A DNA stretch of 64,000 bases from Saprospira grandis DSM 2844 (GCF_000275825.1 NZ_JH719942.1:1060988-1124987); one strand, 5' to 3'; numbered from the stretch's first letter, positions 19,979 to 53,716 are shown. Program-made: numbers and translations. The notes: generated from the letters alone by a model not told the origin.

Positions 19979-19984
19979 CTGTAC

Positions 19985-22049: not shown

Positions 22050-22086
22050 GAGCCATTTTGTTAGCGGTTAAGATATGTATGGCCAA

Positions 22087-33335: not shown

Positions 33336-34127
33336 TTATTCATCCCCATCATCATCTAAGTTCATCGCTGTAGATTGGCCCTTAGGCATCATGCTCGTAT
33401 CATCCCAGAGCTTAGATACCCAAAAGCGAAGTACCGCCTGTTTCTTCTCTTCCTTATCCAAGTACCCGTAATTTCCAGCTGTTTTTGCTTCTAGTCTGAA
33501 ATTGTTTTCTGCGCCCGTCCAACGGAAACTGATTTTCCGCCAAAACAAACCATAGCTTGCTTTTACATGCTTGACCACCCCTTGGCCATAAGTAGCCGTG
33601 GCAATTGCATAAGTAAGGGCATACTTCGCTCTTTTCTTTCGGCCAGCAGCATGGGCAATAATTTCAAAAGCCTGAACGCCCTCCAAATCTGAAACGATCG
33701 GGTGCCAGCGGCCATCGGCAGGGATTTCTCCTTGAATAAAAGTGCCTACCCGACCATTTGCTCCAAGCATGCCATTCACCTCTAGCTTAAAATTGGGCAA
33801 AGTGGTCCCGATCCCTACATTACCTCCCTTACGTAAGAAAAGAAGGCTTTCATTTTCGCCATCATTAAAACTGAGTCCTTCACTATGTGGAGTGGGGTTC
33901 ATAGAAATGCTAAAAGAGGCCTGAGGGTCTCGGATGCTTTGATAGAAGCTCATCAAGCGCTTATTTGGGCCCTGAGTGGCCAACATAAGGCCCTCAGTTG
34001 AACTTTGGGAAAAACCATCGTCTACTTTATTGACCGTAGAGTCGATAAGGTCGGCAAAGTTCACTTCAGTGGGGACCATCCCCCTTTTGAATAAATTTTT
34101 GAGTGTGCTACGCGTGAGTAAAGCCAT
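33336..34127 (-). CDS. phage tail-fibre-like protein (candidate eCIS fibre)
   Basis: The motif GNVGIGTTLPNFKLEVNG is common in tail-fibre and collar proteins. It is the last gene of the contractile-system cluster. Confidence 0.35.
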   Translation of the reverse strand: MALLTRSTLKNLFKRGMVPTEVNFADLIDSTVNKVDDGFSQSSTEGLMLATQGPNKRLMSFYQSIRDPQASFSISMNPTPHSEGLSFNDGENESLLFLRKGGNVGIGTTLPNFKLEVNGMLGANGRVGTFIQGEIPADGRWHPIVSDLEGVQAFEIIAHAAGRKKRAKYALTYAIATATYGQGVVKHVKASYGLFWRKISFRWTGAENNFRLEAKTAGNYGYLDKEEKKQAVLRFWVSKLWDDTSMMPKGQSTAMNLDDDGDE

Positions 34128-34199
34128 TGAGTTGGATACTTTAACTTGAGCTTGTTTAAATTTTTTAGTCAGCAGCTAGACTAAGGCAAAAAAAAATGC

Positions 34200-35185
34200 T
34201 GCAAAGCGCTTATTATTGTTGATTACGACAAAAACAAAAAAAGGCTTTGCAACATGGTTGTGAATTTATCAAAAGAATTTATTACGGAAAAAATATTAGC
34301 ATTTTTTCCCGAAAAAAAATTGGCTCGAAAAACCAAAGCGCCTCTGTGGCAAATTGTTAAAGCGATAATTTATAGGCTTAAAACAGGTTGTCAGTGGAGA
34401 GAATTACCGATACAATCTTTTTTTGACGAAGTTCTAATTTGCTGGCAAACAGTATATTACTACTTCAATAGCTGGTCCGAGTCTGGTATTTGGCAAAAAG
34501 TGTGGATCCAATTTCTAGCCCATGAAAAATCTTGTTTAGATTTATCTAGTATACAGCTTGACGGAAGTCATACCCCAGCGAAAAGAGGGGGCGAAGCTGT
34601 GGGTTATCAGGGCCGAAAAAAGTCCAAAACCACAAATGCTCTCTTTCTCACAGATAAAAATGGGCTGCCAATCGCTATGTCTCCGCCTTTTGCGGGAAAC
34701 CATAATGATTTGTTTGAAATCGAGAGTCATTTCCAAAAAATGCTTGCCGATCTGCAGCTTTCAGACATCTCTCCTGATGGTTTATTTATGAATGCTGATG
34801 CAGGGTTTGATAGCAAAAAACTTAGAGAAAACTGCCAAAAAATGGGCATTATCCCTAATATTGACCACAACAAAAGAAATAGAAAAAAAGCTTATTATCA
34901 AGATATTATAGATGAGGAACTTTACAAAGAACGCTTTTCTGTTGAGCGAACTAACGCATGGATTGACGCATTCAAAATTTTACTCATTCGTTTTGAAAGA
35001 AAAGCCGACAACTGGGCGAGTCTACACTATTTAGCCTTTATACTTATTTTCCTAAAACGAAATTTTTAAACAAACTCTTAAATGTAAAGGCGGGTGAATG
35101 CCATCAAATTTAAAAAATTGTTTGGAAAAGGCGCAGTCAAAACGATTTTATAATTTAGATTTTCTTAATAACGCCTTTATTTATT
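34200..35185 (+). mobile_element. IS5-family insertion sequence (approximate ends)
   Basis: A single DDE transposase ORF with imperfect terminal inverted repeats (AAAGCGCTTATTATTG / CAATAAATAAAGGCGTTATT). It sits inside the injection-system locus. Confidence 0.45.
34254..35069 (+). CDS. IS5-family DDE transposase (DUF4096 N-terminus)
   Basis: N-terminus ...WQIVKAIIYRLKTGCQWRELP... is typical of IS5/IS1182-type transposases. Confidence 0.7.
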   Translation: MVVNLSKEFITEKILAFFPEKKLARKTKAPLWQIVKAIIYRLKTGCQWRELPIQSFFDEVLICWQTVYYYFNSWSESGIWQKVWIQFLAHEKSCLDLSSIQLDGSHTPAKRGGEAVGYQGRKKSKTTNALFLTDKNGLPIAMSPPFAGNHNDLFEIESHFQKMLADLQLSDISPDGLFMNADAGFDSKKLRENCQKMGIIPNIDHNKRNRKKAYYQDIIDEELYKERFSVERTNAWIDAFKILLIRFERKADNWASLHYLAFILIFLKRNF

Positions 35186-35191
35186 GTTTTT

Positions 35192-35395
35192 TGGGCTTTG
35201 GCGAGGCGGCGCAGCCGCCTGCGAGCGCAGCGAGCCATGGCCCAGCGCTGCGGAGTGGGTGGCCGTAGGCCAGACCGAGTTTTTTGAGCGCAGCGAAAAA
35301 AACGAAGGGCCGAGCAGGCTTGCGAGCCCCGCAGCATAGCGGCGGCCGCCCCTACTAAAAAGGGCGGCCGCGGGCCCCAAAAAATGGATCTTATA
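35192..35395. repeat. GC-rich interspersed repeat
   Basis: ggcgaggcggcgcagccgcc...gcagcatagcggcggccgcccc...aagggcggccgcgggccccaaaaaa. Confidence 0.6.
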
Positions 35396-35460
35396 GCACT
35401 AAAAAAGGCCCAAAAGTGCGTAGACTTCTGGGCCAAATCGGTTATGTTTTATACTATTGT

Positions 35461-38400
35461 TTAATCGTCTAATTCTCGTTCTTCGGTCATTACAAAGTCG
35501 CCATCAAGCATCATATTGTCTAGGCCAGCTTTGGCTGGAGACTGGAAGGCCACCTCGTCGAGGAGATAGAGTGGATTTTTCTCGAAAGGAATGAGGACAG
35601 ACCAAGGCGTGGTAGCCTTGAGCAAGGGAGAAGAAGAATTATCGATAGCGGTATCACCTACATCGAAGCCCTCGCCGCTGGGGAAGACCTGCACGGCAGA
35701 AAACTTAGTGACAAAATCGACATATTCTCTTTTTTCGATAAAGCTAAGGAGGACATCCTTCGCCATTGTGCCGCCTAATTCAAGTTCTCTTTGGCCGCCA
35801 TACATCCAGGGGCAGACAAAGTCCATAATATCCTTATTCAATTTTTTGAGGAAGGTACCGTTGTTCATACCTTTTTGGAAGCGGAGACCGCCGGCCACTT
35901 TCACTCTTTCGTAGATAGGATTACGGAGTTTGATATCGACAAAAGGCGAAGCTAGCGGGATGAGATAATCGCGGATAGCCTCTAGGGTGGCGTTATTGAC
36001 CATGGGGAGTCGGCCTTGGTGAGAAGCCTTAATTCTGGGTACAACAACGAGGACCACCTGTCCTTTTTCGATGAACTCTTCATTGCCAATATGCGTCACA
36101 CATTTAACTTGGAAGATATCGGGAAACTGGTCGAGGATAAGGCGTTCATAATCCCAGGCAGAGACGGCTCTACCTTTATGGCGGAGGCGTTCGCTGCTTC
36201 GGGTATAGAATTCTTTTTTATTTTCGCCGGGTCGGCCTTCAAAGGAGCCAAAAGGTTGTTGGACCGAGCGAATTTGGACCAATGGGCTAGCCAGATTTTT
36301 AATCTTATTGGGGGCTAATTTTTCTTCTAAGTGTTTCACCTCCTCTTCGGGGTTTCCGGCCCAGGTTGCCGAGATGGCTTGGGTAGAGAGGTGCAAAATG
36401 GTGGGCATACGGCTAGCGTCGCCACGGAGCGAGGCGCGCAGCCAGAACTTTCCTTTTTTGAAGATGGTATTATTATCTGAAATATCTCTGGGGATATCGA
36501 AAGTGATAATTCCGGAGTTATTAAAGAAATTGGTGGTATCGTTTAGGATTTGGGTTTGCGAGAACTCCTTCCATTCGTCATTAACGAGGAAGCTCCAAAC
36601 GATTTCGGCCTGTTTTGCTTCGCTGCTTCGGCCCTTCATCATAGAAAAATAGTCTTGATTTTCTTTGAGTTCGAAGTAGATAGAGAGCGTAGCGGGTGGA
36701 TTAAAATCTTTGACTCCGAGGAAGAGGTAAGCGTCTTCATCGTAGGCGGGAAGCAGAGTGGGTTTAACTGGGCGGCCTTGAGAGAAGTTGCGCATCACAC
36801 CGAAGGGGTGGATATGGAACAACTCTTCAGCCACAGCTCCAGAGCTATTTACGGTACCGATAGACATGATATTGACTTGGGCCGTAGCGGTATAGTCGAT
36901 ACTCATATTTCGGATAACGGGTGTAAAAGGTTGGTTGGGGAGTTTCTTTTTCTCCTTCGTTTTGGGGTCTGCATTATGGGCAGCCACATCGGCGTAGAGA
37001 TTGGGAAACTCATCGTGGGCGAAAGCCGAGGGCGGGTTGGTCAATTCCATGCGGAAATAGCCCGTTTGGGTTTCGCTGGTATAGGTATCAATTTGTTTAA
37101 GGTTGGCCTGAGGTTCTAGGTCAAAGAGTTTAAGGTCGATATGATTTAGGCAGGTAGTCTTACTAATGCCATGAACATTATCTTCATCTTGTTCGAAGAG
37201 GAAATACTCTTTAACATTGTTCTTATTTTTGGGGAAGAACTCCCCTTCTTGGAGGGCCGACAATTTGATTCGGTAATCTTCATTGCGGATACCGAGGCCA
37301 TATTCTCGATAATAGCCACGGAGGCCTTTTGTATTATCGGGTAGATTATGCCAATTGATATTGATTTTGAGGTTAGTCAGTTCCTTTTTGAAGAGCTCGG
37401 TTTTTCCGATAAGGAGATAAGAGCCTAGCTTTGGGGTAGGGCCAAAAGCTTGGAAAGGGATACTACCTTCTAGTTGGCCGTATTCATTGCTTAGGTTGAG
37501 GCGTTTGATTCCTTTGACTTCAACATCAATGTTAATGCGTTCTAGGCTTAGCTCTTTAAGGAAAGAGTAAGAGTAGGTCACATTTTCGTTTTTGTGGAGG
37601 ACCTTCATAACGGGAAGGCTAGTATCGAAATCGGGGCCTAAGACATTGGCATTATAGCCTACGATAGCGGGGGCATTGGCGGATACGGTAGCGAGCAGGC
37701 TAAACTCGGGGATATTCCAATTTTCTGGGGGAAGGAGTTCGCAGCTTTTGGCTTCGATCCAACCTTCTTCTCCAGAGAGGACTAACTTCAGGCTATTTTT
37801 AAAGACCTTAGAGAAGGCATCTTCTTTAGAGAGGCCTTGATTTCGGCTAATATCCTTAATCAGAAGATTTAGGGTATACATAGAAGACTTATCGAATCGC
37901 ATGCGCAACTTGATACTACGGTGGCCTTCTTCCATTTCGAGGATAGGGGCAGCCATGGCCCAGCCTACTTCGGCATAGACCATTTGGCGTTCATCGGAGG
38001 CTTTTTCGAGTAATTCTTCTCCGAAGGAGGGCCATTCCTCTTCATTATTGATAAAGCGTTTGCCTAGGCCATCTCTAGAGTTGGCGATAGGGGCGGCATA
38101 CATATTTGTGATAAGGCGATAAGAGCTCCCGATACCGATTTTGGGATTTTTGCTCACAAAAAGCGTCTTGACTTCATCTATTTTAGCTTGGTTTAGTTCT
38201 ATGCCATAATCGGTTTTATAGCGAATAGCTTTACCGTCTTCATCGACGCCAGCGTCTAGGAGTGTGCCTGCGGGCAGGAAGAAGCTATCAATATGTTTAG
38301 CTAAGTTGAAATAGACATTCACCTGATCGGGTTGCAGGCCTCTTTCTTGCATTTTGAGCACATCGTAATAATAGAAATCGAGATGCTTTTCGGTGAGGGT

Positions 38401-39231: not shown

Positions 39232-39296
39232 GCTAAGATGCGCTTAAGAGATGGTTATTGTTGTTCTGATAGTGATAGTAGTGGGGTCTAAAGGAA

Positions 39297-39713
39297 TTAG
39301 AGTTCGGTACCTTCTGCGAGATAGAAGGGATAGACCATATTATTACGAGCATTTACGCCCTTAATTTCATAGACCACATTGACATTCACACGGCCACGGA
39401 GCTGCTCGCTTTCGTCTACATCTACAGAGATGAGGCGGATACGGGGTTCGTGATAAAGGATAGCCGTAGTAATGAGATCTTGTATACGGATTCGGGTAGC
39501 GTTATTGATACTTTGAAAAGCCTGGCTATGGATATCGCAACCATAGCTAGGGTTCATGATTCGTTCGCCGGGGAGAGTAGAAAGAAGGATATTAAGGGAT
39601 TCCCTAATATCTTCTTCATCTTGAGACATCACAATTCCGCGGGTAGAGTCGCTAAAGCGGGGCGGGAAGCTCCAGCCTGAGCCTAAAAATGATTTTTGGA
39701 TATCGTCTGACAT
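39297..39713 (-). CDS. gp25/GPW-like baseplate wedge protein
   Basis: SFLGSGWSFPPRF...ESLNILLSTLPGERIMNPSYGCDIH... is the GPW_gp25 signature. Confidence 0.75.
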   Translation of the reverse strand: MSDDIQKSFLGSGWSFPPRFSDSTRGIVMSQDEEDIRESLNILLSTLPGERIMNPSYGCDIHSQAFQSINNATRIRIQDLITTAILYHEPRIRLISVDVDESEQLRGRVNVNVVYEIKGVNARNNMVYPFYLAEGTEL

Positions 39714-39769
39714 GCTTAGAAATTTCTTATCGTCTAAAAATTGGGATCAACTATTTATCTTAAGAGCAG

Positions 39770-39905
39770 AGCGGGCAGTTGCATTGGCCTAGCGCTGCGG
39801 AAGGGTGGCCGTCAGGCCAGACCGAAGCCCGCAGGGCTGAAGGGCCGAGCAGACTTGCGAGCCCTGTAGCATAGCGCCGCAGCTTTGCTGCGGAGGCCCC
39901 AAAAA
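39770..39905. repeat. GC-rich interspersed repeat lodged between the PAAR and gp25 genes
   Basis: gcctagcgctgcggaagggtggccgtcaggccagaccgaagcc...gaagggccgagcagacttgcgagccctgtagcatagcgccgcag...ggaggccccaaaaa. Confidence 0.6.
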
Positions 39906-40196
39906 CTACCCAATCAATACAGTAGGAGCACCAGCCACTACGGCACCACCATGGCCACAAGAGTCGCCGATACGGGCAGCGGGTTTCCCCTCAATCATGA
40001 CCGTTCCGGAGCCAGAGGCAATAGAATCGCCTGCGCAGGCACAGACGGCAGAGTCGCCAAGGCGGGCGGCTGGAATTCCGGTAACCATAACGGTACCGGC
40101 ACCGCTAACAATGGGCCCACCTACATGAGGTGAAGGACCGGGGCAAACGGCGGGGCAAACGTGCATATCGCCAATTCGAGCAGAGGGCATTCCCAT
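39906..40196 (-). CDS. PAAR-domain spike-tip protein
   Basis: Three PAAR-like repeats (PSARIGD, PAARLGD, PAARIGD) in 96 aa. Confidence 0.85.
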   Translation of the reverse strand: MGMPSARIGDMHVCPAVCPGPSPHVGGPIVSGAGTVMVTGIPAARLGDSAVCACAGDSIASGSGTVMIEGKPAARIGDSCGHGGAVVAGAPTVLIG

Positions 40197-40217
40197 AACT
40201 TATTGATTTTAATACTG

Positions 40218-42062
40218 TTAATTAATCTTTACTATACCACCTTTCACTTCGCAAAGTCCGCCGCCTTCCAATTTGGCCGAGGCAGAACCTTTGAGTTCCA
40301 TAGTGGTAGAGCCTTCTCCTTTAACGGCAAGGGCCTTGATAGAGAAGTTGGCGACCGCCTCCATTTTGGTATCGGACTTTGATTTTGTCTCGATGTTAAT
40401 GTCGGCCTCCATTTTAATATTTTTCTTGGCTTTAACGACAAAGTCGCCATCGGTCTCGAAGAGAATCCCGTTCTTATCCATCAACATTTTGTTGACGTTT
40501 ACGGGGTCTTCAATCAGGATCGTATCTTCATCATCATTGAGCTCGATAATCATCTTGTCTTCTGTAATGATCTTGACAATATTTTTGCCTGGATCATCTT
40601 GAAGTTCAATTCGGGTTTTTCCCTTATTGATAGAAATCGACTTAAAGATGTTGGGGTCTGCGGGAATATGCGTTTCCTCGGTCGTAATTCCTCTGCCGCT
40701 ACTATACATAGAGCCCAGAATGACCGGATAAGTGGGGTCTGAGTTGAAAAAGCCAACCACCACCTCATCCCCTACTTCGGGATAAAAAACAAAACCGCAA
40801 TCTTCGGTAGCATAATAATGCGCCATACGGGCCCAAACGCCCTCCCCGGCTTGGTCATCAATAATTGGGATATTGATCAGGACGCGAAATTCGCCATCGG
40901 GATCCGAGTCAATTTGCTTGACCACCCCATGTTGCAGCCCATGAATAGCGGGCAACATTCCGCCTGCGGGGCGAGAGCTAGCCGTAATATTGGCCTCCAT
41001 ATAAGGTTGAGGGTCCATACCCAAGCCCACCTCGGTCAACCATTGGCCTTTCATGACCGTATGGCGAATTCGGCTAACATAAGCATCGCCGACAAAGCGA
41101 GTTCCAAAGCCAAATAGCTCAATCGTTTTGCCCAATTCCGCCTTAGCAGAACCATAAAACTTGAGGCTGCCTCGGATACGAGAAAGATGTCCTCTTTGAT
41201 AAACAGAATCGGCCCAAGACTGAATCACATCCTTAGTCACTGGCGGAGTTGTTTTGACCGTATTTTTGGGTTCAATCACTGCCCCCAGCTTTCCAGAGTC
41301 CAAATCCCCCTGAGCATTTACAGCAGGTTTGGCTCCATCGGCTGTAACAATAGCCAAGTCGGTATGGCTCCAACAAGTAGCACCCACCTCCGTATATTGA
41401 TGAGTCGAATCGATATTCATATCCATCTCCACCAAATCATTTCCATAAGAAATGACCAGTTCAGACTTTTCGCTCACCGTAGGTTTCTTAATCGTAATTT
41501 CGCCATCATTGATAATGGTCACCAAGCTATTCACATCGGCCCGAGACTGGATAAAATCCCAGTCCGTACTCCAATACTGAATCAGTTTTTTGTGTGTGCC
41601 CGAGGTCCCTTCCACATCTGCAGAAAGTCCAGCTTCACTCACCACTGCCGAAATAATATCCGAGTCTGCCTGCTCATAAAACACCTTGTTTTTACGACCA
41701 ACCGTTAGTTTGAGCGCCTTATCCTTACACTTGAGCACCAAAGAGGCACCACTATAATTAGACTGCTTGATACCGTGCTCCACCAAAATCCCCTTATAAA
41801 GAGTTTCCTCCTTACCTGGGCCATACCCCGCTTTCACCTCTACCTCCTTGCCTGGTTCAAACATGGCATCTTCAGAGGTAGGAAACTTTTGCTCCCGAGT
41901 ATCTCCGTCCTTAAGTGTAATACGTGCATAAGGAATTTTATTCAGCTCCTTAACAATATCTACACTCTCCACGACCATTGTTTTAGGCACCTCAGTTCCA
42001 TCAATCAGTACAAGTACCGACAGATAGCCTTCGCCCATGCCTTTTACTGGAGAATCTGCCAT
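40218..42062 (-). CDS. VgrG/gpD-gp5-like central spike/baseplate hub protein
   Basis: 614 aa. Its N-terminal half resembles phage late control gene D / VgrG (...KAGYGPGKEETLYKGILVEHGIKQ...LVLKCKDKALKL...). It lies directly upstream of PAAR. Confidence 0.7.
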   Translation of the reverse strand: MADSPVKGMGEGYLSVLVLIDGTEVPKTMVVESVDIVKELNKIPYARITLKDGDTREQKFPTSEDAMFEPGKEVEVKAGYGPGKEETLYKGILVEHGIKQSNYSGASLVLKCKDKALKLTVGRKNKVFYEQADSDIISAVVSEAGLSADVEGTSGTHKKLIQYWSTDWDFIQSRADVNSLVTIINDGEITIKKPTVSEKSELVISYGNDLVEMDMNIDSTHQYTEVGATCWSHTDLAIVTADGAKPAVNAQGDLDSGKLGAVIEPKNTVKTTPPVTKDVIQSWADSVYQRGHLSRIRGSLKFYGSAKAELGKTIELFGFGTRFVGDAYVSRIRHTVMKGQWLTEVGLGMDPQPYMEANITASSRPAGGMLPAIHGLQHGVVKQIDSDPDGEFRVLINIPIIDDQAGEGVWARMAHYYATEDCGFVFYPEVGDEVVVGFFNSDPTYPVILGSMYSSGRGITTEETHIPADPNIFKSISINKGKTRIELQDDPGKNIVKIITEDKMIIELNDDEDTILIEDPVNVNKMLMDKNGILFETDGDFVVKAKKNIKMEADINIETKSKSDTKMEAVANFSIKALAVKGEGSTTMELKGSASAKLEGGGLCEVKGGIVKIN

Positions 42063-42098
42063 TTTTCTTTATTTATCTTCTAGTTAATTGAGTCAATT

Positions 42099-42287
42099 CT
42101 ATCGATTCATTTTGTACTCCCAAGCTTCCATTGCTCGGCGCACCGCTTCCTGAATCAGGATTTCTTTATCTTTTTCGGTCATGCCTTTTCCCTGTTCCTT
42201 TCCATCTTCTTTTCCCTGACCTTTGCCCCCAGCATTTTGTGCATTCACATTGGTGTTGACATTCATTTCTTTTACTGTTACTGCCAT
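42099..42287 (-). CDS. small hypothetical protein (62 aa) inside the contractile cluster
   Basis: ORF with a K/G/E-rich N-terminus and a helical C-terminus. Confidence 0.3.
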   Translation of the reverse strand: MAVTVKEMNVNTNVNAQNAGGKGQGKEDGKEQGKGMTEKDKEILIQEAVRRAMEAWEYKMNR

Positions 42288-42321
42288 AAGCTGTATATTT
42301 TTTTGCTGTTTTTAAGCAGGT

Positions 42322-42472
42322 TTTTTGGGGGCCTGCGGGCTTCGCCCGCCGCTATGTTGCAGGGCTCGCAAGCCTGCTCGGCCCTTCGCAAAATTTCGCT
42401 ACGCTCATTTTGCTTGGTCTGGCCCTACGGGCCACCCTTCCACAGCGCTAGGCCAAAAACGGCTTCGCTTAA
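42322..42472. repeat. GC-rich interspersed repeat inside the contractile cluster
   Basis: ttttgggggcctgcgggcttcgcccgccgctatgttgcagggctcgcaagcctgctcggccc... Confidence 0.6.
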
Positions 42473-43158
42473 TGAGCTACCACCTTAGAGAAAGCGTAAG
42501 AAAGTTCAATTTCTTGGACCAGCAAATCCTCTGAAGTAGAGTTGAGCGAGCTCAAACTCATTTTAGAGGGATAGGCAAAATTAAACTCCATAGAAATCAA
42601 AATTTGCGGCTTTCCAGATTTTGTCAAGTTGGGGTGCATTACATTTACCTGAATCCCCTTGAGCTTAATTTGCTCATTCCAAGAAGCCATGGCCTCAAAA
42701 CTTTCTTCACACCATTTGGTCCAAGGATCCGAGCTTTTAATGATATCGGGACGCACCAATCGCTTTAGCGTAATGGCCGAGTTTTTCATTTTGTCGGGCA
42801 AGTCAATGGGGTAATTGTAGCCCCCCTCATTATACGTCTTCTTTCCCTCCAAACCAATCTCCAAACCACTCACCTCAATAAAAGAGTTATGAATATTGGT
42901 ATCACCTGGCGTAGGCAAGCCATTAGCTCCGCCACCGTCTATCTTATTGATTGCCTTTTTCATCATTCCTCCAACCATTCCTCCTACAAAGGTATCTACA
43001 GCCCCTTTAGCAACTCCAGCCAAAAAGCTATTCCCTTCATGCTTCTGATCATACATCTGCACATCAAAATAGAAGGCAGGAATAGGTGAGGTCGTTTTTT
43101 CGTCCTCTTTCATGACTTCATCTAAGAAGCGCTCAAATGGGCTAATGGTATTATTCAT
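42469..43158 (-). CDS. tube-fold protein with a Gly-rich insertion (candidate tube initiator / Afp5- or Afp7-like, no LysM)
   Basis: PIPAFYFDVQMYDQ...SFIEVSGLEIGLEGKKTYNEGGYNYPIDLPDKMKNSAITLKRLV...ISMEFNFAYP parallels the gp19-like motifs of the two tube genes. Confidence 0.45.
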   Translation of the reverse strand: MNNTISPFERFLDEVMKEDEKTTSPIPAFYFDVQMYDQKHEGNSFLAGVAKGAVDTFVGGMVGGMMKKAINKIDGGGANGLPTPGDTNIHNSFIEVSGLEIGLEGKKTYNEGGYNYPIDLPDKMKNSAITLKRLVRPDIIKSSDPWTKWCEESFEAMASWNEQIKLKGIQVNVMHPNLTKSGKPQILISMEFNFAYPSKMSLSSLNSTSEDLLVQEIELSYAFSKVVAH

Positions 43159-43220
43159 ATCTTATTGGGATTATCTACAGCGATTGGTCTAAAAGTTAAT
43201 ATGCTAAGCGGTATTTTATC

Positions 43221-43736
43221 CTAACCGCCCACCTCCGTTTCAAAATGACGGAAGGCAAACTCCATTTCTTCTACAGCCACCTCATTTTCAGATTCGGCAT
43301 CAAAGTTAGAGGGAATATATTTTGTAATAAAGGCCTTTTCAAGTCGCCAGATAAACTGCGTCTCCATATTGTGGTCCAAAAGGTGGATCTCAATAGTTCG
43401 GCGAGAAGTATACTCTCGACTCACCGCTACCTGGTCAAACAAACGGCTCATTTGATCATCTTGAGAAAACGATCCTTTTTTAAGGGTAATACGGCTGTAC
43501 TGCAACATACCGGGCATGCGCTCCTTTCCAAAAAAGGGAGAATTACCATCGCGGTACTCAATCACCCCAATTTCAGCCTCCAAACCATCTACAGTTTGAA
43601 AAGACATTTCAATTGGACCAATAAACACCCGAAAGCTAAAGCGCGTTAGGGGCCAAGTCATTGTGGAATCTGAACTCATAACATCTATTTTTGAGAAAGC
43701 GGCTGCCCAAGTTAACTCGCTAAATACTAGGGCCAA
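43221..43736 (-). CDS. phage tail tube protein (gp19/Afp1-Afp5 family), paralog 2
   Basis: TRFSFRVFIGPIEMSFQTVDGLEAEIGVIEYRDGNSPFFGKERMPGMLQYSRITLKKG. Confidence 0.8.
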   Translation of the reverse strand: MALVFSELTWAAAFSKIDVMSSDSTMTWPLTRFSFRVFIGPIEMSFQTVDGLEAEIGVIEYRDGNSPFFGKERMPGMLQYSRITLKKGSFSQDDQMSRLFDQVAVSREYTSRRTIEIHLLDHNMETQFIWRLEKAFITKYIPSNFDAESENEVAVEEMEFAFRHFETEVGG

Positions 43737-43866
43737 GGCAAGATTTTTTTGGGCCTATGCCCTAAAAATAGCGCTTAGCGATACTGCCTTTCATTATCAA
43801 GGAGTTAAGGCTGCTTATAAGTTAAGCGCTTTAGGCTACTAAATTAAAGAAAAAATCTTGATAGCA

Positions 43867-43900
43867 CAAAAAAAACCTAGCAGGTTTTTACCTGCCAGGT
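43867..43900 (-). terminator. intrinsic terminator/attenuator immediately downstream of the major tube gene
   Basis: The minus strand reads ACCTGGCAGG-taaaa-ACCTGCTAGG (one G-U pair) followed by TTTTTTTT. Confidence 0.5.
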
Positions 43901-43927
43901 TTATTTTATTGCTAAGCTAAGTTAAAC

Positions 43928-44383
43928 TTATGCAGTTTCCATAGTCCACTCTTCGCAGCAGAACTCAAGTTCTTCGATAGCGACTTCAGAGTCAGCTTCT
44001 GCGTCAAAAGGAGTAGGAGTAAACTTAGTAACGAAAGCGTTGAGTAGCGTCCAAGTGAAAACGATCTCATCAGCTTCATTCATCAAGTGAATGATTACAG
44101 TACGGCGCTCAGTGTGTTGGTGGTCAACTGAAAGCTCTTTGTACCACTGATAGAGGTAGTCATCGCTCTGGAAAGTACCCTTCTTCAAGGTGATGTTGCT
44201 ATAAGACATCAAACCGGGACGCTTAGTCTTGTAGAAGTTGGTAGAGTTACCTGCACGGTACTCCATTACAGAAATCTCAGTCTCAAGACCTTCGATTGTC
44301 TGGAAGCCCAAAGTGTTGGGGATATTGTCAATCTCGATAGAGAAATAAAACTTAGGCAGTGGCCATTCTGTTGTTGCAGACAT
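43928..44383 (-). CDS. phage tail tube protein (gp19/Afp1 family), paralog 1
   Basis: PKFYFSIEIDNIPNTLGFQTIEGLETEISVMEYRAGNSTNFYKTKRPGLMSYSNITLKKG. Confidence 0.85.
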   Translation of the reverse strand: MSATTEWPLPKFYFSIEIDNIPNTLGFQTIEGLETEISVMEYRAGNSTNFYKTKRPGLMSYSNITLKKGTFQSDDYLYQWYKELSVDHQHTERRTVIIHLMNEADEIVFTWTLLNAFVTKFTPTPFDAEADSEVAIEELEFCCEEWTMETA

Positions 44384-44497
44384 GATATATGGCGTTTAAA
44401 AGTATGATCTAAATTTAAAATGTTGATGCTCTCCCGTTTGAGCCCAAGAGAAAGGCTAAAATGCTTTAGATAGTGATCTCTAAGTTAAGCACAAAGC

Positions 44498-45991
44498 TTA
44501 CTCAGCACCACCGGGCATTTTCTGCTGGAAAGTGATAACGATGAATTCAGCAGGACGAGAGATAGCTACTTTTACAGAAACCTTCATGTAACCATCTAGG
44601 ATATCCTGAGGAGTCATAGTTGTACCCAAACCAACCTCAACTTGGAAAGCCTGATCTTCAGTAGCACCTACCAAAGCACCTGCTTGCCACTGGCTACGCA
44701 AGAAAGAACCAATCATTGATTTAACTGCGATCCAAGTGTTAGCGTCATTGGGACGGAATACGAAAGGCTCACAAGCGAACTTCACAGACTGCTCCAACAT
44801 GATCATAGTACGACGTACGTTGATGTAGCGCCAGTCTTGGCTGTTACCGTCTAGCGTACGAGCACCCCATACCAAAGTACCTTTTCCTACGAAAGGACGG
44901 ATGGCATTGATTGCTTTACCGCTCAAGGGCAAGTTCAAGTCTTCTTGCTCAGTAGCAGAAATGTTTACAGTAGGTCCAGTTACAGAAGAAACTGATACGT
45001 TAGCAGGCGCTTTGAATACACCTACAGTGCTATCTACCAAAGAGTAAAGACCAGCTACAGCTCCAGAAGGAGGCAATACGTTCAACATATCGCGCATTTG
45101 ACCCAATACATCATTGTATACGGGGCTTACCGCCTTCATGATGTTGTGTACAGCAGTTACGTTAGCATCAGCGTCAGCCATCTTAGCGATTTCAGCTTTG
45201 ATCAACTCACCTTTTTCAGCTTTAACGAAACCAGCAGCTACGTTGTCATCTACTTCTTTGTTAAGCAACTCAACGAAACCTTCTAGGTTAGCAACATTAG
45301 TATAGTCAAACTCATCAGCTTGAACAACAGTAGCTTTCAACCAAGGGTAGTAAGCTGCACCGAAGTCTAGGAAGTTGTTGCCATAAGCCTCACGAGCGCA
45401 AGTTACAACATCATCATCTAGCATGCTGCGAGATTCGTTACCGTTCCATACGTCTAGGATAGCGAAGCGGCTACGAGTGTCAGCACCACAATGCTTCAAC
45501 ATTGCTTGTTGTACTGTACCACAGTCACCTTCTTCCAAAGAGATAGCATCGGGAACTACAAGCAAAGTAGGCTCTTGCTCCTTCAACAAAGCAGTGATAC
45601 CACCACCGTTCTCAGTACCCACTAGGGTCTTGGGAGAAACGTCGTCGTTGTATCCACCAACAGAAACGATGTAGCAAGTTCCACCGCCGTTAGCGTAGAA
45701 CATTTGAAGGCTACGGAACAACATGTAGTTACCGGCATCAACAGAAACGGTATAGTTGTCACCTTCAGCATCAACGTTGAAAGTAGTTTTGGGAGCACCA
45801 CCAAAGTAAGATAGGTACTCAACCAATGAAGTAATGCGCATTGGCGTGTTGGTCAAGTCGCGCTTACCAGCAGCGGCTCTCTCTGTGTGGCCAATGAAAG
45901 CAGGGATAGCAGTTCCTACTGCTACAACAGAATTCGAAAAGGCGCTTTTTTCTTCGATATAAACGCCTGGTGTTGCATACTGTTTTGCCAT
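44498..45991 (-). CDS. contractile tail sheath protein
   Basis: The N-terminal TPGVYIEE motif is a hallmark of phage and eCIS sheath proteins. 497 aa. Confidence 0.85.
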   Translation of the reverse strand: MAKQYATPGVYIEEKSAFSNSVVAVGTAIPAFIGHTERAAAGKRDLTNTPMRITSLVEYLSYFGGAPKTTFNVDAEGDNYTVSVDAGNYMLFRSLQMFYANGGGTCYIVSVGGYNDDVSPKTLVGTENGGGITALLKEQEPTLLVVPDAISLEEGDCGTVQQAMLKHCGADTRSRFAILDVWNGNESRSMLDDDVVTCAREAYGNNFLDFGAAYYPWLKATVVQADEFDYTNVANLEGFVELLNKEVDDNVAAGFVKAEKGELIKAEIAKMADADANVTAVHNIMKAVSPVYNDVLGQMRDMLNVLPPSGAVAGLYSLVDSTVGVFKAPANVSVSSVTGPTVNISATEQEDLNLPLSGKAINAIRPFVGKGTLVWGARTLDGNSQDWRYINVRRTMIMLEQSVKFACEPFVFRPNDANTWIAVKSMIGSFLRSQWQAGALVGATEDQAFQVEVGLGTTMTPQDILDGYMKVSVKVAISRPAEFIVITFQQKMPGGAE

Positions 45992-46046
45992 GATTTAATT
46001 TATTTTGAAAAGTTTAATTGATTTACAAATTTATTTTGTCATCTGA

Positions 46047-47174
46047 TTACAAATATACAATTATTTCGGAAAACACAGCATTCTCAACGTTAAAATCTGT
46101 TTTTAATATTGATTTTGCTGAATGGTTAGGTAAATCTGTAATCCATTCGATTCCATTTTTGCCTCTTTTGGTCCGAAGCTTAAAGCGGCTCAGCTGTTTT
46201 TCCTTAAAAGGAATGGGCGCTGAAGTTTTGACCAAAACGGCCAGTTCGCCAGAAGGCATAAGCACCTCCTCGGCCTCTTCAAAGTCTACTGTTTCGCCAG
46301 CTCGGCCATTATCGTAGGCCTCATGTCCTTTGTGCTGCCTATCCTCATTCATTTCTACTATATAGTAGTGCCAAGGTAAAGCCCTAGCAGGGAAATGGAT
46401 GTTATACTCTCTTTTAGACAACAACTTTCCCTGCTCATCAAAAAAGCGGTAAGGGCTGTCATCCTCCTTATCGATATAAATATCCACCACGCCCCAAATT
46501 CCGGCAGTTCCCTCAGGAGCCAAATAAAAAGTATACTCTTCCAAGCCGTCTAGCTGCAAAATATACTTTCCGGCTGGGGCATCAGGCATAACCACATCTA
46601 CATGGGCATTTTCGCCTTCCTGCTCCAAAAAGAAATAAGACTGGCCCAACTCATCTACCACCTCGATTTCCGCATCCTCCTCTTCATCATCAAATTCGTA
46701 GCGGAAAACAGGGCCTTCAAGTGCTAAGCGATCCATTTCAGAAACCAACTCATCATTAGACAAATTGCCCTCCTCATCTTCAATCTTATCTTCGGCCCGA
46801 TTTGTAAAGTGATAAATATAATCACCAAACTCATAAGGGAGGCCCGTATAGTTAAGGAAGAAAGCATCTTCTACCTTCATCCAAAAACTTAACTTTAAAG
46901 GTTTTTCCAAACTTTCTAAAGCCGGCCCTCCAGAAACTGTCTCGCCATAACCAATCAGCAAATTATTGCCCTCAAAGGCCGTTTTAAGCTGATTTTGCTT
47001 TAGGCGAAAAACCGTATCGGAAGTAGGACTAAGAACTACATCTTTACAGATCTGCTCATCAAAGTAATCGTGCAGGATCGCTATGTTTAATAGCTGATTA
47101 TAGCGAGTTTGGATGTTCAGCAACATATGATGCTCCATCGGATTTCCTCGCCTGCTAAATTTACGTCTCTTCAT
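46047..47174 (-). CDS. hypothetical acidic protein between the cap candidate and the sheath (eCIS-associated, function unknown)
   Basis: 375 aa, D/E-rich, no P-loop. The alternative start MEHHM is 12 codons in. Confidence 0.4.
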   Translation of the reverse strand: MKRRKFSRRGNPMEHHMLLNIQTRYNQLLNIAILHDYFDEQICKDVVLSPTSDTVFRLKQNQLKTAFEGNNLLIGYGETVSGGPALESLEKPLKLSFWMKVEDAFFLNYTGLPYEFGDYIYHFTNRAEDKIEDEEGNLSNDELVSEMDRLALEGPVFRYEFDDEEEDAEIEVVDELGQSYFFLEQEGENAHVDVVMPDAPAGKYILQLDGLEEYTFYLAPEGTAGIWGVVDIYIDKEDDSPYRFFDEQGKLLSKREYNIHFPARALPWHYYIVEMNEDRQHKGHEAYDNGRAGETVDFEEAEEVLMPSGELAVLVKTSAPIPFKEKQLSRFKLRTKRGKNGIEWITDLPNHSAKSILKTDFNVENAVFSEIIVYL

Positions 47175-47339
47175 TAAGCTCTTCTGCTTTAAGTCCCTTA
47201 AAATTAGAGAATTTAATTTTGGTCTGCAAAGTTTATTCGCAGTTTTTTTTCTTTTTTTTTAATAAAAGCTAAAATTTAGGCCCAGTTGGCATTTTTCGTA
47301 GACCTAGCTAATATCACACTGTCATTAGTTAAGCGACAA

Positions 47340-47482
47340 AGCCCAACTACAGCCGCCCCATTTGGCCTAGCGATGTGCAGGGGGGGCCGCAGGCCAGACC
47401 GAGCAGGCAAAGCCTGCGCAGGGCCGAGCGAACAGCGAGCCCCGAAACGTAGCGCCTGCCGAAGGCAGGAGGCCCCAAACCT
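47340..47482. repeat. GC-rich interspersed repeat inside the contractile cluster
   Basis: gcctagcgatgtgcagggggggccgcaggccagaccgagcagg...gccgagcgaacagcgagccccgaaacgtagcgcctgccgaaggcaggaggccccaaa. Confidence 0.6.
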
Positions 47483-47484
47483 TC

Positions 47485-48045
47485 CTAAATCTTGCGAATA
47501 GAAGGAATTTCTGGCTCGGGCTTTTTATGCTCAATCGGAATTGTTTTGAAGCGATAGAGCACCGAAGGCAAATACTTGGCCCCTACCCCATTCCAAACAT
47601 TAGAAATATCGCGAAAATCTGGCGATACCATTTCGGCCACCAAACGACTGAGGCTGCCCGAAAGTGCGGGCGTATTTTGCTCATTAAAAACGCCTTGGCG
47701 GCTTTGGAAAAAAGCGATCACCGAGCTAACAAACTTAAGGCCCTCCAAATAATTTTCATTGGTAAAATAGGCCGAGAACAACATATATATATTGACTTCA
47801 ACTGGGGGGGTCACCTTAGTAAAATTCCCTCGCTTATTGGGCTGATAAGTCGCCGTGCTGCTCTTATTGCGCTCGGCCTCAATGTTAATGATCGTCATCA
47901 CGATCTTATCGGCCTCTTGCACCGCCATCGAGCCATCGGCATTAACCAAATGAGAAATGATGACTTTCTCTTCTAAAATATTGTGTTTAGACTGCAAAAA
48001 GCGGTTGAGCTCGCCCACCACCGCCGTGACAACTTTATCAATCAT
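47485..48045 (-). CDS. DUF4255-like protein (candidate Afp16/Pvc16-type tube/sheath cap)
   Basis: Size ~186 aa and position at the 5' end of the cluster fit. The N-terminus MIDKVVTAVVGELNRFL resembles cap proteins as I recall them. Confidence 0.4.
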   Translation of the reverse strand: MIDKVVTAVVGELNRFLQSKHNILEEKVIISHLVNADGSMAVQEADKIVMTIINIEAERNKSSTATYQPNKRGNFTKVTPPVEVNIYMLFSAYFTNENYLEGLKFVSSVIAFFQSRQGVFNEQNTPALSGSLSRLVAEMVSPDFRDISNVWNGVGAKYLPSVLYRFKTIPIEHKKPEPEIPSIRKI

Positions 48046-48050
48046 AATCC

Positions 48051-48308
48051 TTATTCTTCTTCCTCCTCAGCTTCTGGCTGAGTTAGTGTTTTGATAGAAA
48101 GCGCAATAAAACGCATAATATAGATGCCCAAAAAGGAGGTGAAATAACCAATCAAGTACATCCAGAACACCCAGTTGCGCTCAATTTCACTCATATTCAC
48201 CACCTCTCTGGTATAACCAAAGAACCAAAGGAACACCACCGCCATAGGCAGCGAGACGATCAGGGCCACAATTAGCCAAATGAACTCTCTTGCGATTATT
48301 TTAAACAT
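48051..48308 (-). CDS. small two-TM membrane protein with an acidic tail
   Basis: Two hydrophobic helices. C-terminus EAEEEEE. Its stop is 6 bp before the cap-like gene. Confidence 0.4.
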   Translation of the reverse strand: MFKIIAREFIWLIVALIVSLPMAVVFLWFFGYTREVVNMSEIERNWVFWMYLIGYFTSFLGIYIMRFIALSIKTLTQPEAEEEEE

Positions 48309-52681: not shown

Positions 52682-53716
52682 TTATTCGGCTTTAAATACG
52701 GGGATTTTTTTCTGCAAAAAGATTTCTTGCACCCGTTCCCGCTTAATAATCTCCAAGATTTCGGCTCGTTTGAGCTGAAACTTGGCCACCTTAATATAGA
52801 CCCGAACTCCGGTGACCGTATTGAGGTTTCTGAAGCACATTTTGAGTTGCTTATAGGTTCCGGCTTTATAGGCGGGGATCACTCCAAAAGGAGCTGGGTT
52901 GAGGCCTTGTGTTCCTACATAATTATCGTTAGCTCGAGGGTCTTTAAAGTCGTATCGGAGGTTTCGGGCCAAAGAGTTGTTGGCCATAGGGAGGGTTTCG
53001 GTGAGGCCTAGTCCGTAGGCCATTAGGGGTTCAGAAACCTCTGCGGCAATCCAGCTAAGCTTAGGGTTGGCCTTGAGGTTTTGGTATTCTTGATGGGTTT
53101 TATCGCCAATGCCGATCCAGTAGACGGCATATTGATAATCGCCATCGAGTAGGGCTTCGGTGATACAGCTATCGGCTAGTGATTGATAATCGAGGGCGGG
53201 CTGTAGGTCCAGCTGAATTTCGGTAATATCTGGATAGGGGATAGTGTCGGGATAGGCGGTGCGCATGGTATCAATAGAGGTAGTGACCATAACATCATCG
53301 AGGACCAGGGAGTCTTGAAAAGACATGGCTGGAAATTTATAGATTTGCATCCGAAAGGTCCGGCCCAGTAGTCCTCTATTTTTCATCACAAAGTTGTGCG
53401 TTCCGTCTTTAGAGGCCATAAAAGACTCTCGTTCTAGGCTACGCACTTTTTTCATGCGCATTTTAAATTGGGTACCAGGCAATTCTACAATGAGGCGGCC
53501 CAATTTGCGGGCACCAATAGTTTGCATATCGATGACTACTTGTTCGCCTTGTTTGAGGTCATAGGAGAGCACCTTTTTTTTCCAGGCACCCAATTCTACG
53601 AGTTCATCAAAGAGGACAATTCGTTCGTCGTAGGAGCTTTGGGCCTGTAGGGGGCTATATAGCAGGCATAATAATAGGGCAAACCACTGCCAATGCAGCT
53701 TTTTGGGTATTCTCAT
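52682..53716 (-). CDS. hypothetical secreted protein (start at MRIPKK)
   Basis: Signal peptide ...PLQAQ. Confidence 0.4.
   Translation of the reverse strand: MRIPKKLHWQWFALLLCLLYSPLQAQSSYDERIVLFDELVELGAWKKKVLSYDLKQGEQVVIDMQTIGARKLGRLIVELPGTQFKMRMKKVRSLERESFMASKDGTHNFVMKNRGLLGRTFRMQIYKFPAMSFQDSLVLDDVMVTTSIDTMRTAYPDTIPYPDITEIQLDLQPALDYQSLADSCITEALLDGDYQYAVYWIGIGDKTHQEYQNLKANPKLSWIAAEVSEPLMAYGLGLTETLPMANNSLARNLRYDFKDPRANDNYVGTQGLNPAPFGVIPAYKAGTYKQLKMCFRNLNTVTGVRVYIKVAKFQLKRAEILEIIKRERVQEIFLQKKIPVFKAE

Follow-up and report, generated by a model that had tools for sequence, protein, structure and literature searches.

A probable main locus of a clade-Ib contractile injection system, orthologous to the Aureispira T6SS-iv, in Saprospira grandis DSM 2844

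Introduction

T6SS-iv are cell-anchored contractile injection systems (CISs) described in Amoebophilus and Aureispira. In Aureispira sp. CCB-QB1 the T6SS-iv is the killing machine of ixotrophy, anchored in the inner membrane and needed for killing (bioRxiv 10.1101/2024.01.29.577165). Lien et al. equate this machine with rhapidosomes, group the Aureispira sheath with that of S. grandis in their tree, list S. grandis strain Lewin as ixotrophy-positive and report insertion sequences (IS) that interrupt the coding sequences of cis14 and cis11 in Aureispira (bioRxiv 10.1101/2024.01.29.577165). S. grandis is a predatory marine bacterium of the same family as Aureispira, the Saprospiraceae. T6SS-iv belong with AlgoCIS, tCIS and SalCIS to the clade-Ib CISs. 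Within this group, SalCis20 has a signal peptide, an SleL-like domain and three transmembrane (TM) helices, and the SalCIS authors propose an inner-membrane anchor made of Cis13 and Cis20 (PMC13266070).

Here we describe a locus of S. grandis DSM 2844, the organism being identified by exact protein matches to the records of that strain. The kind of machine is already known from its relative Aureispira; independent IS insertions in the locus are a modest new detail.

Results

The window, i.e., the whole stretch of DNA analysed, spans 64 kb. An initial annotation had assigned 33336-48308 to a contractile injection system as opposed to a prophage, and this was borne out by family and solved-structure searches as well as by the absence of phage head, terminase, integrase and lysis genes from the window. 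All of the ORFs it named are present on the minus strand, and its gene content (sheath, tubes, spike, PAAR, gp25, baseplate, fibre-like protein and DUF4255 cap) passes family or solved-structure searches throughout (Table 1). The cluster ORFs of the block share one strand, but an IS5-family transposase lies inside it on the plus strand. Every one of the 15 cluster ORFs in the window is full length; they are 91-97% identical between strains at the DNA level, with intact reading frames, and the flanks consist of housekeeping genes conserved between strains.

Table 1. Features of the injection system cluster and its insertion sequence, in window coordinates
Feature	Position	Strand	Evidence or remark
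Cis13 short fibre-like/anchor protein, 263 aa	33336..34127	-	Family profile matches N-terminus of tCIS Cis13 (All3316), 2.5e-7, and Bdellovibrio fibre proteins
IS5-family insertion sequence, 929 bp	34148..35076	+	20 nt upstream of cis13 ATG
IS5-family transposase	34254-35069	+	NCBIfam transpos_IS5_3 (NF033580), 147 bits (cut-off 110)
Candidate Bacteroidota-type -7 promoter box for cis13, TAAATTTG	35105..35112	-	Now split from cis13 by the IS
Terminator-like hairpin directly 3' of cis11	35407..35434	-	11-bp stem and T run
Cis11 gp6-like baseplate protein, cage-type length, 1256 aa	35461..39231	-	Solved Cis11 structures
Cis9 gp25-like wedge protein	39297..39713	-	GPW_gp25, E 4.7e-26
Cis10 PAAR tip	39906..40196	-	Pfam PAAR_motif, E 7e-25
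Cis8 VgrG-like spike	40218..42062	-	Phage_base_V, E 6e-20
Cis6 spike plug candidate, DUF5908, 62 aa, between tube and spike	42099..42287	-	PF19265, 28.3 bits (cut-off 27.7)
Cis5-like tube adaptor, 229 aa, tube domain at residues 90-222	42469..43158	-	T4_gp19, E 7e-13
Second Cis1-like tube paralogue	43221..43736	-	T4_gp19, E 2.4e-27
Candidate terminator-like hairpin 3' of main tube gene	43873..43902	-	13-bp stem and T run; consensus match
Cis1 inner tube protein	43928..44383	-	T4_gp19, E 3.5e-34
Cis2 sheath	44498..45991	-	Pfam Phage_sheath_1C, E 7e-14
Cis16B cap adaptor	46047..47174	-	Family profile: tCIS All3326 2e-54, AlgoCIS cap adaptor 7e-24, SalCis16b 1e-21
Cis16A cap/tail terminator (DUF4255)	47485..48045	-	Pfam Pvc16_N, E 1.5e-31
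85-aa membrane protein, two TM helices	48051..48308	-	Hydropathy; between hydrolase gene and cap gene
Cis20-like membrane hydrolase, paralogue a, 725 aa	48529..50706	-	Pfam GH18, E 2.9e-24
Cis20-like membrane hydrolase, paralogue b, 628 aa	50752..52638	-	Pfam GH18, E 1.6e-26
344-aa secreted protein, signal peptide, first gene of cluster in Saprospira/Aureispira group	52682..53716	-	Synteny

The TPGVYIEE motif that had been pointed out in the sheath is confirmed at residue 7. There is a single sheath protein, nearest to clade-Ib sheaths, with PDB matches to SalCIS (1.9e-154), AlgoCIS (2e-107), tCIS (4.5e-95) and PVC/Afp (~1e-48), and its orthologue in strain Lewin is named 'cytoplasmic fibril protein'. 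The two-part cap, a clade-Ib trait in which Cis16A is joined by the Cis16B adaptor, is also present. The probable start codon of the second tube paralogue is the ATG at 43679, for a product of 152 aa; in relatives this gene has a long N-terminal extension. For the Cis5-like adaptor, the best PDB matches were SalCIS baseplate chain 9rce_I (1.4e-11), AlgoCIS 7aeb_Y and tCIS All3323, alongside a weak match to NCBIfam CIS5_fam.

On the spike side, Cis8 matched SalCis8 (1e-116), tCIS All3320 (1e-114) and AlgoCIS (1e-108), and the Cis6 candidate is annotated as a gene in independent assemblies. Cis11 had no Pfam match but matched the solved Cis11 baseplate/cage proteins of tCIS (All3317, 1e-121), AlgoCIS (6e-118) and SalCIS (3e-109), and also Pvc11 and Afp11. 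The matches to All3317 (1231 aa), AlgoCIS Cis11 (1050 aa) and SalCis11 (1323 aa) fall in several stretches, and the protein appears to be the long form with a predicted cage extension, as in clade Ib. More than 120 homologues were found, the nearest from Saprospira/Aureispira. A hairpin equivalent to that behind cis11 stands 5' of cis13 in three relatives (L004, L046, L011). A 93-aa ORF at 35155-35436 was rejected as a gene, as it lies within a dispersed intergenic repeat. The initial annotation was right that PAAR precedes gp25, but this departure from the Afp order is usual in clade Ib, as our 80-locus comparison showed, and occurs in Anabaena tCIS as well.

The cluster runs 5.4 kb further upstream than first drawn, to about 53716; the initial annotation had missed these conserved genes as well as the IS element. 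The 85-aa membrane protein has identically placed homologues in L084, L090-L092 and L100, as well as in 8 of the 80 loci from the genome collection. Next come two Cis20-like hydrolases that are 29% identical to each other, paralogue a with three C-terminal TM segments and paralogue b with a signal peptide, an SleL/YdhD-like GH18 domain and C-terminal TM segments; the latter number two windows in the hydropathy scan versus four helices (residues 520-626) in the AF2 model (pLDDT 82), for which SleL 4s3j was Foldseek rank 3. In about 20 clade-Ib clusters, the 5' end is occupied by the family of hydrolase b. The motif of hydrolase b, DGVEINFE, keeps the catalytic Glu and has Asn at the second Asp of classical chitinases, and because of this replacement GH18 catalytic activity is uncertain. 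The SalCis20 chain was absent from the phmmer list of the GH18 proteins (E 0.001) and from the 60 of 153 profile matches listed, and the structure library was older than the release of the SalCis20 structure; we therefore draw the link between the two from synteny and from domain architecture, a signal peptide, an SleL-like GH18 domain and C-terminal TM segments being features of the GH18 proteins and of SalCis20 alike. The 344-aa protein, which had no match in Pfam, NCBIfam or PHROGs, has homologues of 346-350 aa directly 5' of the two hydrolase genes in L090, L091, L092 and L100, beyond which the genes differ.

The initial annotation had called the system complete-looking. This did not hold: besides the upstream extension and the IS upstream of cis13, searches with family HMMs derived from 80 related loci detected no Cis7 (CIS_tube+LysM), Cis12, Cis14 tape measure or Cis15 AAA+ ATPase in the 64-kb window. 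In most of the clade-Ib relatives among these loci, cis7, cis12, cis14 and cis15 lie in the same cluster, after cis13. The gap between tube and spike that had been taken as a peculiarity is none, the canonical position of tape measure and ATPase being after cis12. Synteny with strain Lewin places cis12 ~8 kb beyond the right window edge, some 18 kb 5' of the cluster, where its orthologues (SapgrDRAFT_0933, SGRA_1346) stand alone among housekeeping genes. By analogy with Aureispira, and given their near-universal presence in relatives, cis7, cis14 and cis15 presumably lie elsewhere in the genome; the locus is not self-sufficient. Families f5, f13 and f23, which occur in cyanobacterial loci L073/L074, were not found in the window. 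As had been noted, no effector follows downstream, the next gene after cis13 encoding a pyruvate-dehydrogenase-type E1.

Cis13 homologues come after cis11 in 51 loci, and hydropathy revealed no TM helix in Cis13. The element in front of cis13 is an IS5-family insertion: it encodes a DDE transposase scoring above the family cut-off, is bounded by 18-nt inverted repeats and a 2-3 bp target duplication, and its site is empty in three close relatives (L084, L093 and strain Lewin, L096). At least four identical copies of the transposase are present in the genome. A TAnnTTTG motif lies 41-53 nt 5' of the cis13 ATG in L084, L004, L046 and L011; because the motif is short, we assign the -7 box of DSM 2844 tentatively. 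Probably, the IS5 element lies between cis13 and its promoter and lowers cis13 expression; alternatively, it may be without effect or be the source of an outward promoter.

In the independently sequenced strain Lewin, a different element was found at a different site: a 1479-bp IS3 insertion interrupts cis20a (window-equivalent 48828/48830), which is intact in DSM 2844. Both insertions fall in the putative membrane-anchor module and spare the core tube-sheath genes. It is conceivable, although we regard it as rather doubtful, that endogenous IS insertion into the T6SS-iv locus is recurrent across Saprospiraceae, as opposed to being peculiar to a single laboratory strain of Aureispira. If so, Cis13 and Cis20 would be components whose loss rich culture tolerates or favours; should the effect of the IS be reversible, it could act as an on/off or attenuation switch of predation.

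Discussion

We consider it highly probable that the block at 33336-48308 is the main locus of the clade-Ib contractile injection system of S. grandis DSM 2844, an orthologue of the Aureispira T6SS-iv and likely the genetic basis of the classical rhapidosomes, or cytoplasmic fibrils. At the level of genes, we find both orthology and synteny with the established T6SS-iv, and of the options left by the initial annotation the T6SS-iv reading is supported as the best fit.

By homology, as the S. grandis system is known here from its genes, a mechanism can be proposed. The Cis8 spike trimer, the Cis10 PAAR tip and the Cis6 plug would nucleate the baseplate, built from Cis9, Cis11 (cage) and Cis12; the tube, made of Cis1 paralogues on the Cis5 adaptor, and the Cis2 sheath would then polymerize to a length set by the tape measure, and Cis16A and Cis16B would close the far end. 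The baseplate would be held at the inner membrane via Cis13 trimers and the two Cis20-like TM hydrolases, which may in addition breach the peptidoglycan of the producing cell. Contact with prey would trigger sheath contraction, thrusting the tube with its spike into the prey, so that in S. grandis, too, the machine may serve in killing.

An extracellular CIS of the AlgoCIS/Afp/PVC kind, whose particles are freed by lysis, whose Cis13 fibres bind targets and whose GH18 and 85-aa proteins form a release module, appears unlikely, though it is the strongest of the competing explanations. AlgoCIS is a close structural relative, and rhapidosomes have historically been seen in lysates (introduction of Lien et al.). 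The GH18 enzyme with its small membrane protein, a pair found in many clade-Ib clusters, superficially resembles an endolysin and holin, but in contrast to phage endolysins these hydrolases come with a Sec signal and membrane anchors of their own, and no release was seen for SalCIS, whose accessory genes are the same (PMC13266070). Moreover, Aureispira, the nearest characterized relative, has a system that is inner-membrane anchored and acts by contact, Cis13 is short (263 aa), and the cluster is without toxin cargo genes or ATPase.

We find it quite improbable that the locus is a decaying, non-functional remnant that has lost core genes while accumulating insertion sequences. Such decay would account for the four core genes missing from the window and for the IS elements upstream of cis13 in DSM 2844 and inside cis20a in Lewin, as well as for truncated cis20a and split cis13 gene calls in other strains. 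It is at odds with the full-length ORFs and their intact frames between strains, with a cis12 that is intact at a conserved separate site, and with an architecture ending at cis13 that is conserved across Saprospira and Aureispira; furthermore, Lien et al. (bioRxiv 10.1101/2024.01.29.577165) find the system of Aureispira to be functional and list strain Lewin as ixotrophy-positive.

A prophage tail module or R-type tailocin can be set aside almost entirely: myophage tails do share the folds of sheath, tube, gp25, baseplate J and VgrG, but Pfam searches of every ORF reaching 150 aa across the 64-kb window found no capsid or other head, portal, terminase, integrase or lysis families, a PHROGs search with ten ORFs (four from the cluster and six unassigned ones from outside it) was negative, the flanks are conserved housekeeping genes, CIS structures match over the full length where cultured-phage sheaths match only the C-terminal 40% at no more than 35% identity, and IMG/VR held no relative of the sheath.

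Comparison with known systems

Among described systems, Afp (Serratia) and PVC (Photorhabdus) share the core folds with this locus (sheath, tube, VgrG, PAAR, gp25, Baseplate J and DUF4255 cap) but are, judging by the sheath, much more distant than SalCIS, AlgoCIS and tCIS. They have three sheath paralogues and a short Cis11 (607-728 aa), and clusters in the canonical order, that of Afp numbering 1-16, contain the fibre, tape measure and ATPase, whereas no tape measure, AAA+ ATPase or toxin payload of this type was found in the window. AlgoCIS (Algoriphagus machipongonensis, PDB 7ADZ/7AEB), which is released extracellularly according to the literature as quoted, shares the cap adaptor, the Cis6 plug, the caged Cis11 and the long spike.

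Anabaena tCIS (PMC8894136; PDB 7B5H/7B5I) shares the order from Cis16A through Cis11 to Cis13 and the Cis11 cage, with strong matches to Cis2, Cis8, Cis11 and Cis16B. Its Cis13 has a C-terminal TM helix and is followed by cis12 and cis19; here Cis13 is without such a helix and cis12 is displaced. SalCIS (Salmonella enterica subsp. salamae, PMC13266070; PDB 9R9H, 9RCE, 9R9N, 9R9A) is the best solved-structure match for sheath and spike. It has the Cis16B cap adaptor as well, and its Cis13 and TM hydrolase (signal peptide, C-terminal TM segments) have putative counterparts here, whereas its operon contains cis15, two effectors and a single Cis20, against two Cis20 paralogues and neither ATPase nor effector here.

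The closest resemblance is to Aureispira, compared through metagenome-assembled genomes (MAGs) and not the CCB-QB1 cluster: the gene order of Aureispira and Saprospira MAG loci is that of this locus. All shared components are 31-78% identical to those of the Aureispira loci, which likewise have a cage-type Cis11; for one Aureispira MAG (L008) the identities are 78% for the sheath, 56% for VgrG and 54% for both Cis11 and Cis13, and for a Saprospira MAG (L004) they are 85%, 70%, 64% and 78%, respectively. In both Aureispira and S. grandis, IS elements have landed in the cluster, at different sites: in the cis13 5' leader (DSM 2844) and inside cis20a (Lewin) in S. grandis, and in cis14 and cis11 in Aureispira.

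Gene content of the cluster

The contractile injection system (CIS) ORFs claimed in the initial annotation on the minus strand are present as described. Searches against Pfam recovered the cap (Pvc16_N/DUF4255, E = 1.5e-31), the C-terminal domain of the sheath (7e-14), three gp19-type tube proteins (3.5e-34, 2.4e-27 and 7e-13), the OB domain of the spike (6e-20), PAAR (7e-25) and gp25 (5e-26), together with a DUF5908 match in a 62-aa ORF between tube and spike. The TPGVYIEE motif lies at residue 7 of the sheath, and the 229-aa "third tube-fold protein" is nearest to Cis5 tube adaptors. The 1256-aa protein found no match in Pfam and aligned with Cis11 proteins of known structure from Anabaena tCIS (1e-121), AlgoCIS (6e-118) and SalCIS (3e-109), with weaker matches to Pvc11 and Afp11; a Cis11-Cis12 fusion was considered and rejected, as its length and alignments are those of Cis11 alone and a separate cis12 exists. 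The 375-aa protein, whose family profile matched All3326 (2e-54), the AlgoCIS cap adaptor (7e-24) and SalCis16b (1e-21), is the Cis16B cap adaptor. Profile matches to the docking segment at the N-terminus of tCIS Cis13 and to Bdellovibrio fibre proteins identify the 263-aa protein as Cis13. Exact look-ups gave EJF52642 for the DSM 2844 sheath, SapgrDRAFT_0902 for Cis11 and SapgrDRAFT_0900 for Cis13; the sheath orthologue of strain Lewin carries the name "cytoplasmic fibril protein".

The intergenic gaps, five of them within the cluster, are occupied by a dispersed GC-rich repeat (REP/MITE-like, approximately 40-185 bp per copy), and this accounts for the unusually long spacers and for a spurious 93-aa ORF. 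The latter, with its TTG start and Arg/Ala-rich translation inside a repeat copy, was rejected as a gene. Spacers at the same junctions are mostly shorter in a Saprospira MAG (L004), and an Rfam search of 32-58 kb returned no match. The second tube gene of related Saprospiraceae encodes a protein of 473-815 aa, whereas the S. grandis version comprises the tube domain only (152-171 aa). In the L004 protein, the only long one scanned, the gp19 tube domain is C-terminal and the N-terminal extension matched no Pfam family; the long form is possibly a cargo-carrying tube protein.

Coordinates of features in the window, or in the related locus named
Feature	Coordinates	Strand
CIS ORFs as initially annotated	33336-48308	minus
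Functional cluster	~33336-53716	minus
cis20a (paralogue a)	48529-50706	
A7 run in cis20a	near 48810-48830	
Paralogue b	50752-52638	
IS5-family element (929 bp)	34148-35076	
Lewin element (1479 bp)	L100 (CP002831.1) 7880-9358; window-equivalent 48828/48830	
cis12, by colinearity with Lewin	window-equivalent 71.8-74.9 kb	that of the cluster
Rejected 93-aa ORF	35155-35436	
GC-rich repeat, gaps in cluster	35203-35385, 39785-39876, 42343-42455, 47363-47404, 48405-48473	
GC-rich repeat, elsewhere	3584-3639, 4457-4555, 7036-7091, 13229-13359, 18946-19114, 24136-24203, 33194-33241, 54328-54425, 59371-59476	
Long second tube gene, relatives	L004 3844-6291; L092 18475-20922; L090 18485-19906; L091 18892-20517	
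Four tandem ORFs (180-205 aa)	7242-9991	minus
Three tandem DUF6976 paralogues (325-327 aa)	19106-23070	minus
nSTAND1-WD40 NTPase (1119 aa)	28208-31567	minus
SprB-repeat T9SS protein (894 aa)	54521-57205	minus

Membrane and periplasmic proteins upstream of the cap

Two tandem ORFs upstream of the cap, cis20a and paralogue b, belong to a GH18 family found at the 5' end of approximately 20 clade-Ib clusters. Each carries a signal peptide and a GH18 domain and has transmembrane segments towards its C-terminus, three of them in paralogue a; paralogue b shows two C-terminal hydropathy windows, versus four helices in the model. An alignment-based AF2 model of paralogue b (pLDDT 82) matched chitinases and, at rank 3, SleL (4s3j), a hydrolase of the spore cortex, and the family profile likewise places YdhD and SleL high. 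The family motif is DG[VI]EINFE, with the catalytic Glu, E281 in paralogue b, kept in ~100 of 109 members and Asn in place of the neighbouring Asp. The make-up published for SalCis20 is alike: a Sec signal, a periplasmic domain resembling SleL, and three transmembrane helices. Its authors propose that SalCis20 remodels peptidoglycan and that it and Cis13 together hold the baseplate at the inner membrane (PMC13266070). The SalCis20 chain was not among the listed matches of phmmer or of the family profile, and the Foldseek library is older than the release of its structure. A metagenome scan with paralogue b retrieved just two short, near-identical contigs.

An 85-aa protein with two transmembrane helices sits between the hydrolases and the cap, and a 344-aa secreted protein encoded upstream of the hydrolases matched no known family; its single-sequence AF2 model (pLDDT 33) was discarded. 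The leader gene, the tandem hydrolase pair and the small protein are common to strain Lewin and three other Saprospiraceae contigs. Because these genes are conserved while those beyond the leader gene vary, the functional cluster extends past the cap, with an operon start 5.4 kb upstream of the initially annotated block. These membrane and periplasmic proteins are obvious candidates for the inner-membrane and periplasmic parts of a trans-envelope complex.

The SprB-repeat protein, which has a T9SS sorting domain and lies just upstream of the cluster, at the same place in Lewin, was rejected as a member since it is not adjacent outside S. grandis; a link to the extracellular "antenna" of Aureispira would be pure speculation.

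Gene order and dispersed core genes

Across 80 related genomic loci, the genes usually follow the order GH18 membrane protein, small membrane protein, Cis16A, Cis16B, sheath, tubes, Cis6, Cis7 (CIS_tube and LysM), VgrG, PAAR, gp25, Cis11 and Cis13, followed by a small ORF, Cis12 (~1000 aa), Cis14 (CIS_TMP, PF19268) and Cis15 (AAA+). PAAR before gp25, initially noted as a difference from the Afp order, is thus the norm of the clade, and the same holds in Anabaena (all3327 to all3313). The cluster had also been described as complete-looking, but it is not complete, as cis7, cis12, cis14 and cis15 are absent from it; family HMMs for the four found nothing in the window except the housekeeping FtsH, hit by the AAA+ profile. 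The absence is no strain-specific damage, as all Saprospira and most Aureispira-type loci stop at Cis13 and continue with unrelated genes such as UvrD, biosynthetic genes and ABC transporters. Removal of cis12, cis14 and cis15 by an insertion sequence (IS) was rejected, as IS-free relatives including Lewin also end at cis13, with the same E1-dehydrogenase gene downstream.

A Saprospiraceae Cis12 query retrieved SapgrDRAFT_0933 in DSM 2844 and SGRA_1346 in Lewin. In Lewin, Aureispira anguillae and a Saprospira-like metagenome contig cis12 is a lone gene among housekeeping genes, with a small ORF of 38-63 aa before it. The window and the Lewin cis12 locus overlap at the window's right end, and colinearity places cis12 ~18 kb upstream of the cluster. 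As Aureispira has cis14 (Lien et al., bioRxiv 10.1101/2024.01.29.577165), we infer that cis7, cis14 and cis15 lie at other sites in the S. grandis genome. Some Aureispira genomes have the cluster split further; in two Aureispira MAGs, L006 and L022 (1-10000), PBP1 and TPR genes, not spike and PAAR, precede Cis7 (CIS_tube), gp25, Cis11 and Cis13. Those annotating or engineering the system should note that the cluster alone comes without four core genes.

Insertion sequences

An IS5-family element begins its separation of cis13 from the upstream DNA 20 nt before the cis13 ATG; it is bounded by 18-nt inverted repeats and has produced a target duplication of 2-3 bp. Its transposase, encoded on the strand opposite to the cluster, scores above the curated NCBIfam threshold, and the DSM 2844 genome has at least four identical copies of it. 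The site is empty in three close relatives, namely Lewin, contig L093 and a metagenomic locus, L084, whose Cis11 is 97% identical. Downstream of cis11 is a terminator-like hairpin, and four Saprospira loci without the IS have a TAnnTTTG box 41-53 nt ahead of cis13. Judged from these short motifs, cis13 probably has its own promoter (candidate TAAATTTG), now parted from the gene by the element. A sigma-70 promoter scan is uninformative for Bacteroidota.

Lewin carries a different element within cis20a, with an rve-type (IS3-like) transposase and a 3-bp overlap at the junction, which leaves the GH18 domain cut off from the three transmembrane helices that follow it. An A7 run marks the start of the transmembrane-coding part of cis20a; public assembly P0403 has a -1 frameshift at this run and P0402 a deletion of ~25 nt. 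Other strains encode cis20a products of 634-660 aa (660 aa in WH-T) and a cis13 split into 113 and 172 aa. These disruptions may reflect real mutations, though errors of assembly may explain some of them.

Insertion of IS elements into cis14 and cis11 abolishes killing in Aureispira, and one element, in cis14, underwent excision during starvation, with return of killing; Lewin is listed as ixotrophy-positive, its insertion notwithstanding (Lien et al.). The S. grandis pattern is consistent with the Aureispira phenomenon, although it is not proof, and would allow the IS-switch model put forward there to be tested cheaply by comparison. With an IS in the locus of both sequenced stocks, phenotypes measured in DSM 2844 and Lewin may not reflect the wild-type machine.

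Neighbouring genes

The nSTAND1-WD40 NTPase, two genes downstream of cis13, occupies that position solely in S. grandis-like contigs (L093 and the Lewin contig L096), with distant homologues (~25% identity) elsewhere in three other loci. The DUF6976 paralogues adjoin a protoglobin-STAS protein and appear unrelated to the CIS. Three of the four tandem ORFs cluster as paralogues, and weak T9SS C-terminal sorting domains were detected in three of the four.

Discussion

Among solved structures, the sheath best matched SalCIS (1.9e-154), then AlgoCIS and tCIS, with PVC and Afp far behind, and the spike gave the same ranking. A released eCIS is less likely, as the hydrolases carry their own anchors and the nearest relative to have been characterised also speaks against it. 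A decaying remnant is unlikely, given that the cluster ORFs are all intact and conserved between strains and that a functional system has the same architecture. A prophage tail is effectively excluded: Pfam searches of all window ORFs of 150 aa or longer yielded no capsid, portal, terminase, integrase or lysis genes, as originally claimed, those outside the CIS being chromosomal Bacteroidota genes such as T9SS substrates, porin, FtsH, TsaE, transporters and the nSTAND-WD40 NTPase, and PHROGs gave no match for the ten ORFs searched, of which six had no other assignment. The reading as a T6SS-iv-like CIS rather than a phage stands, without its completeness.

SalCIS, AlgoCIS and the Amoebophilus T6SS-iv were grouped in clade Ib by the SalCIS authors (PMC13266070). 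The nearest relatives of the T6SS-iv-like cluster described here, judged from Cis11 homologues and the 80 loci, are Saprospira and Aureispira genomes with identical gene order. The Aureispira system is an inner-membrane-anchored T6SS-iv needed for prey killing in ixotrophy; the same authors noted the S. grandis cluster, whose sheath groups with that of Aureispira, and considered rhapidosomes likely to be T6SS-iv structures (Lien et al.). Because of that work, the kind of system and the existence of the cluster are already known. What the present locus adds is useful yet incremental: core genes that are dispersed, tandem Cis20 paralogues accompanied by a conserved leader gene, and two independent IS insertions. 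Altogether, the locus connects a defined set of genes with the Saprospira rhapidosomes, a curiosity of cytology for 60 years, and provides the equivalent in S. grandis of the predation machine of Aureispira.
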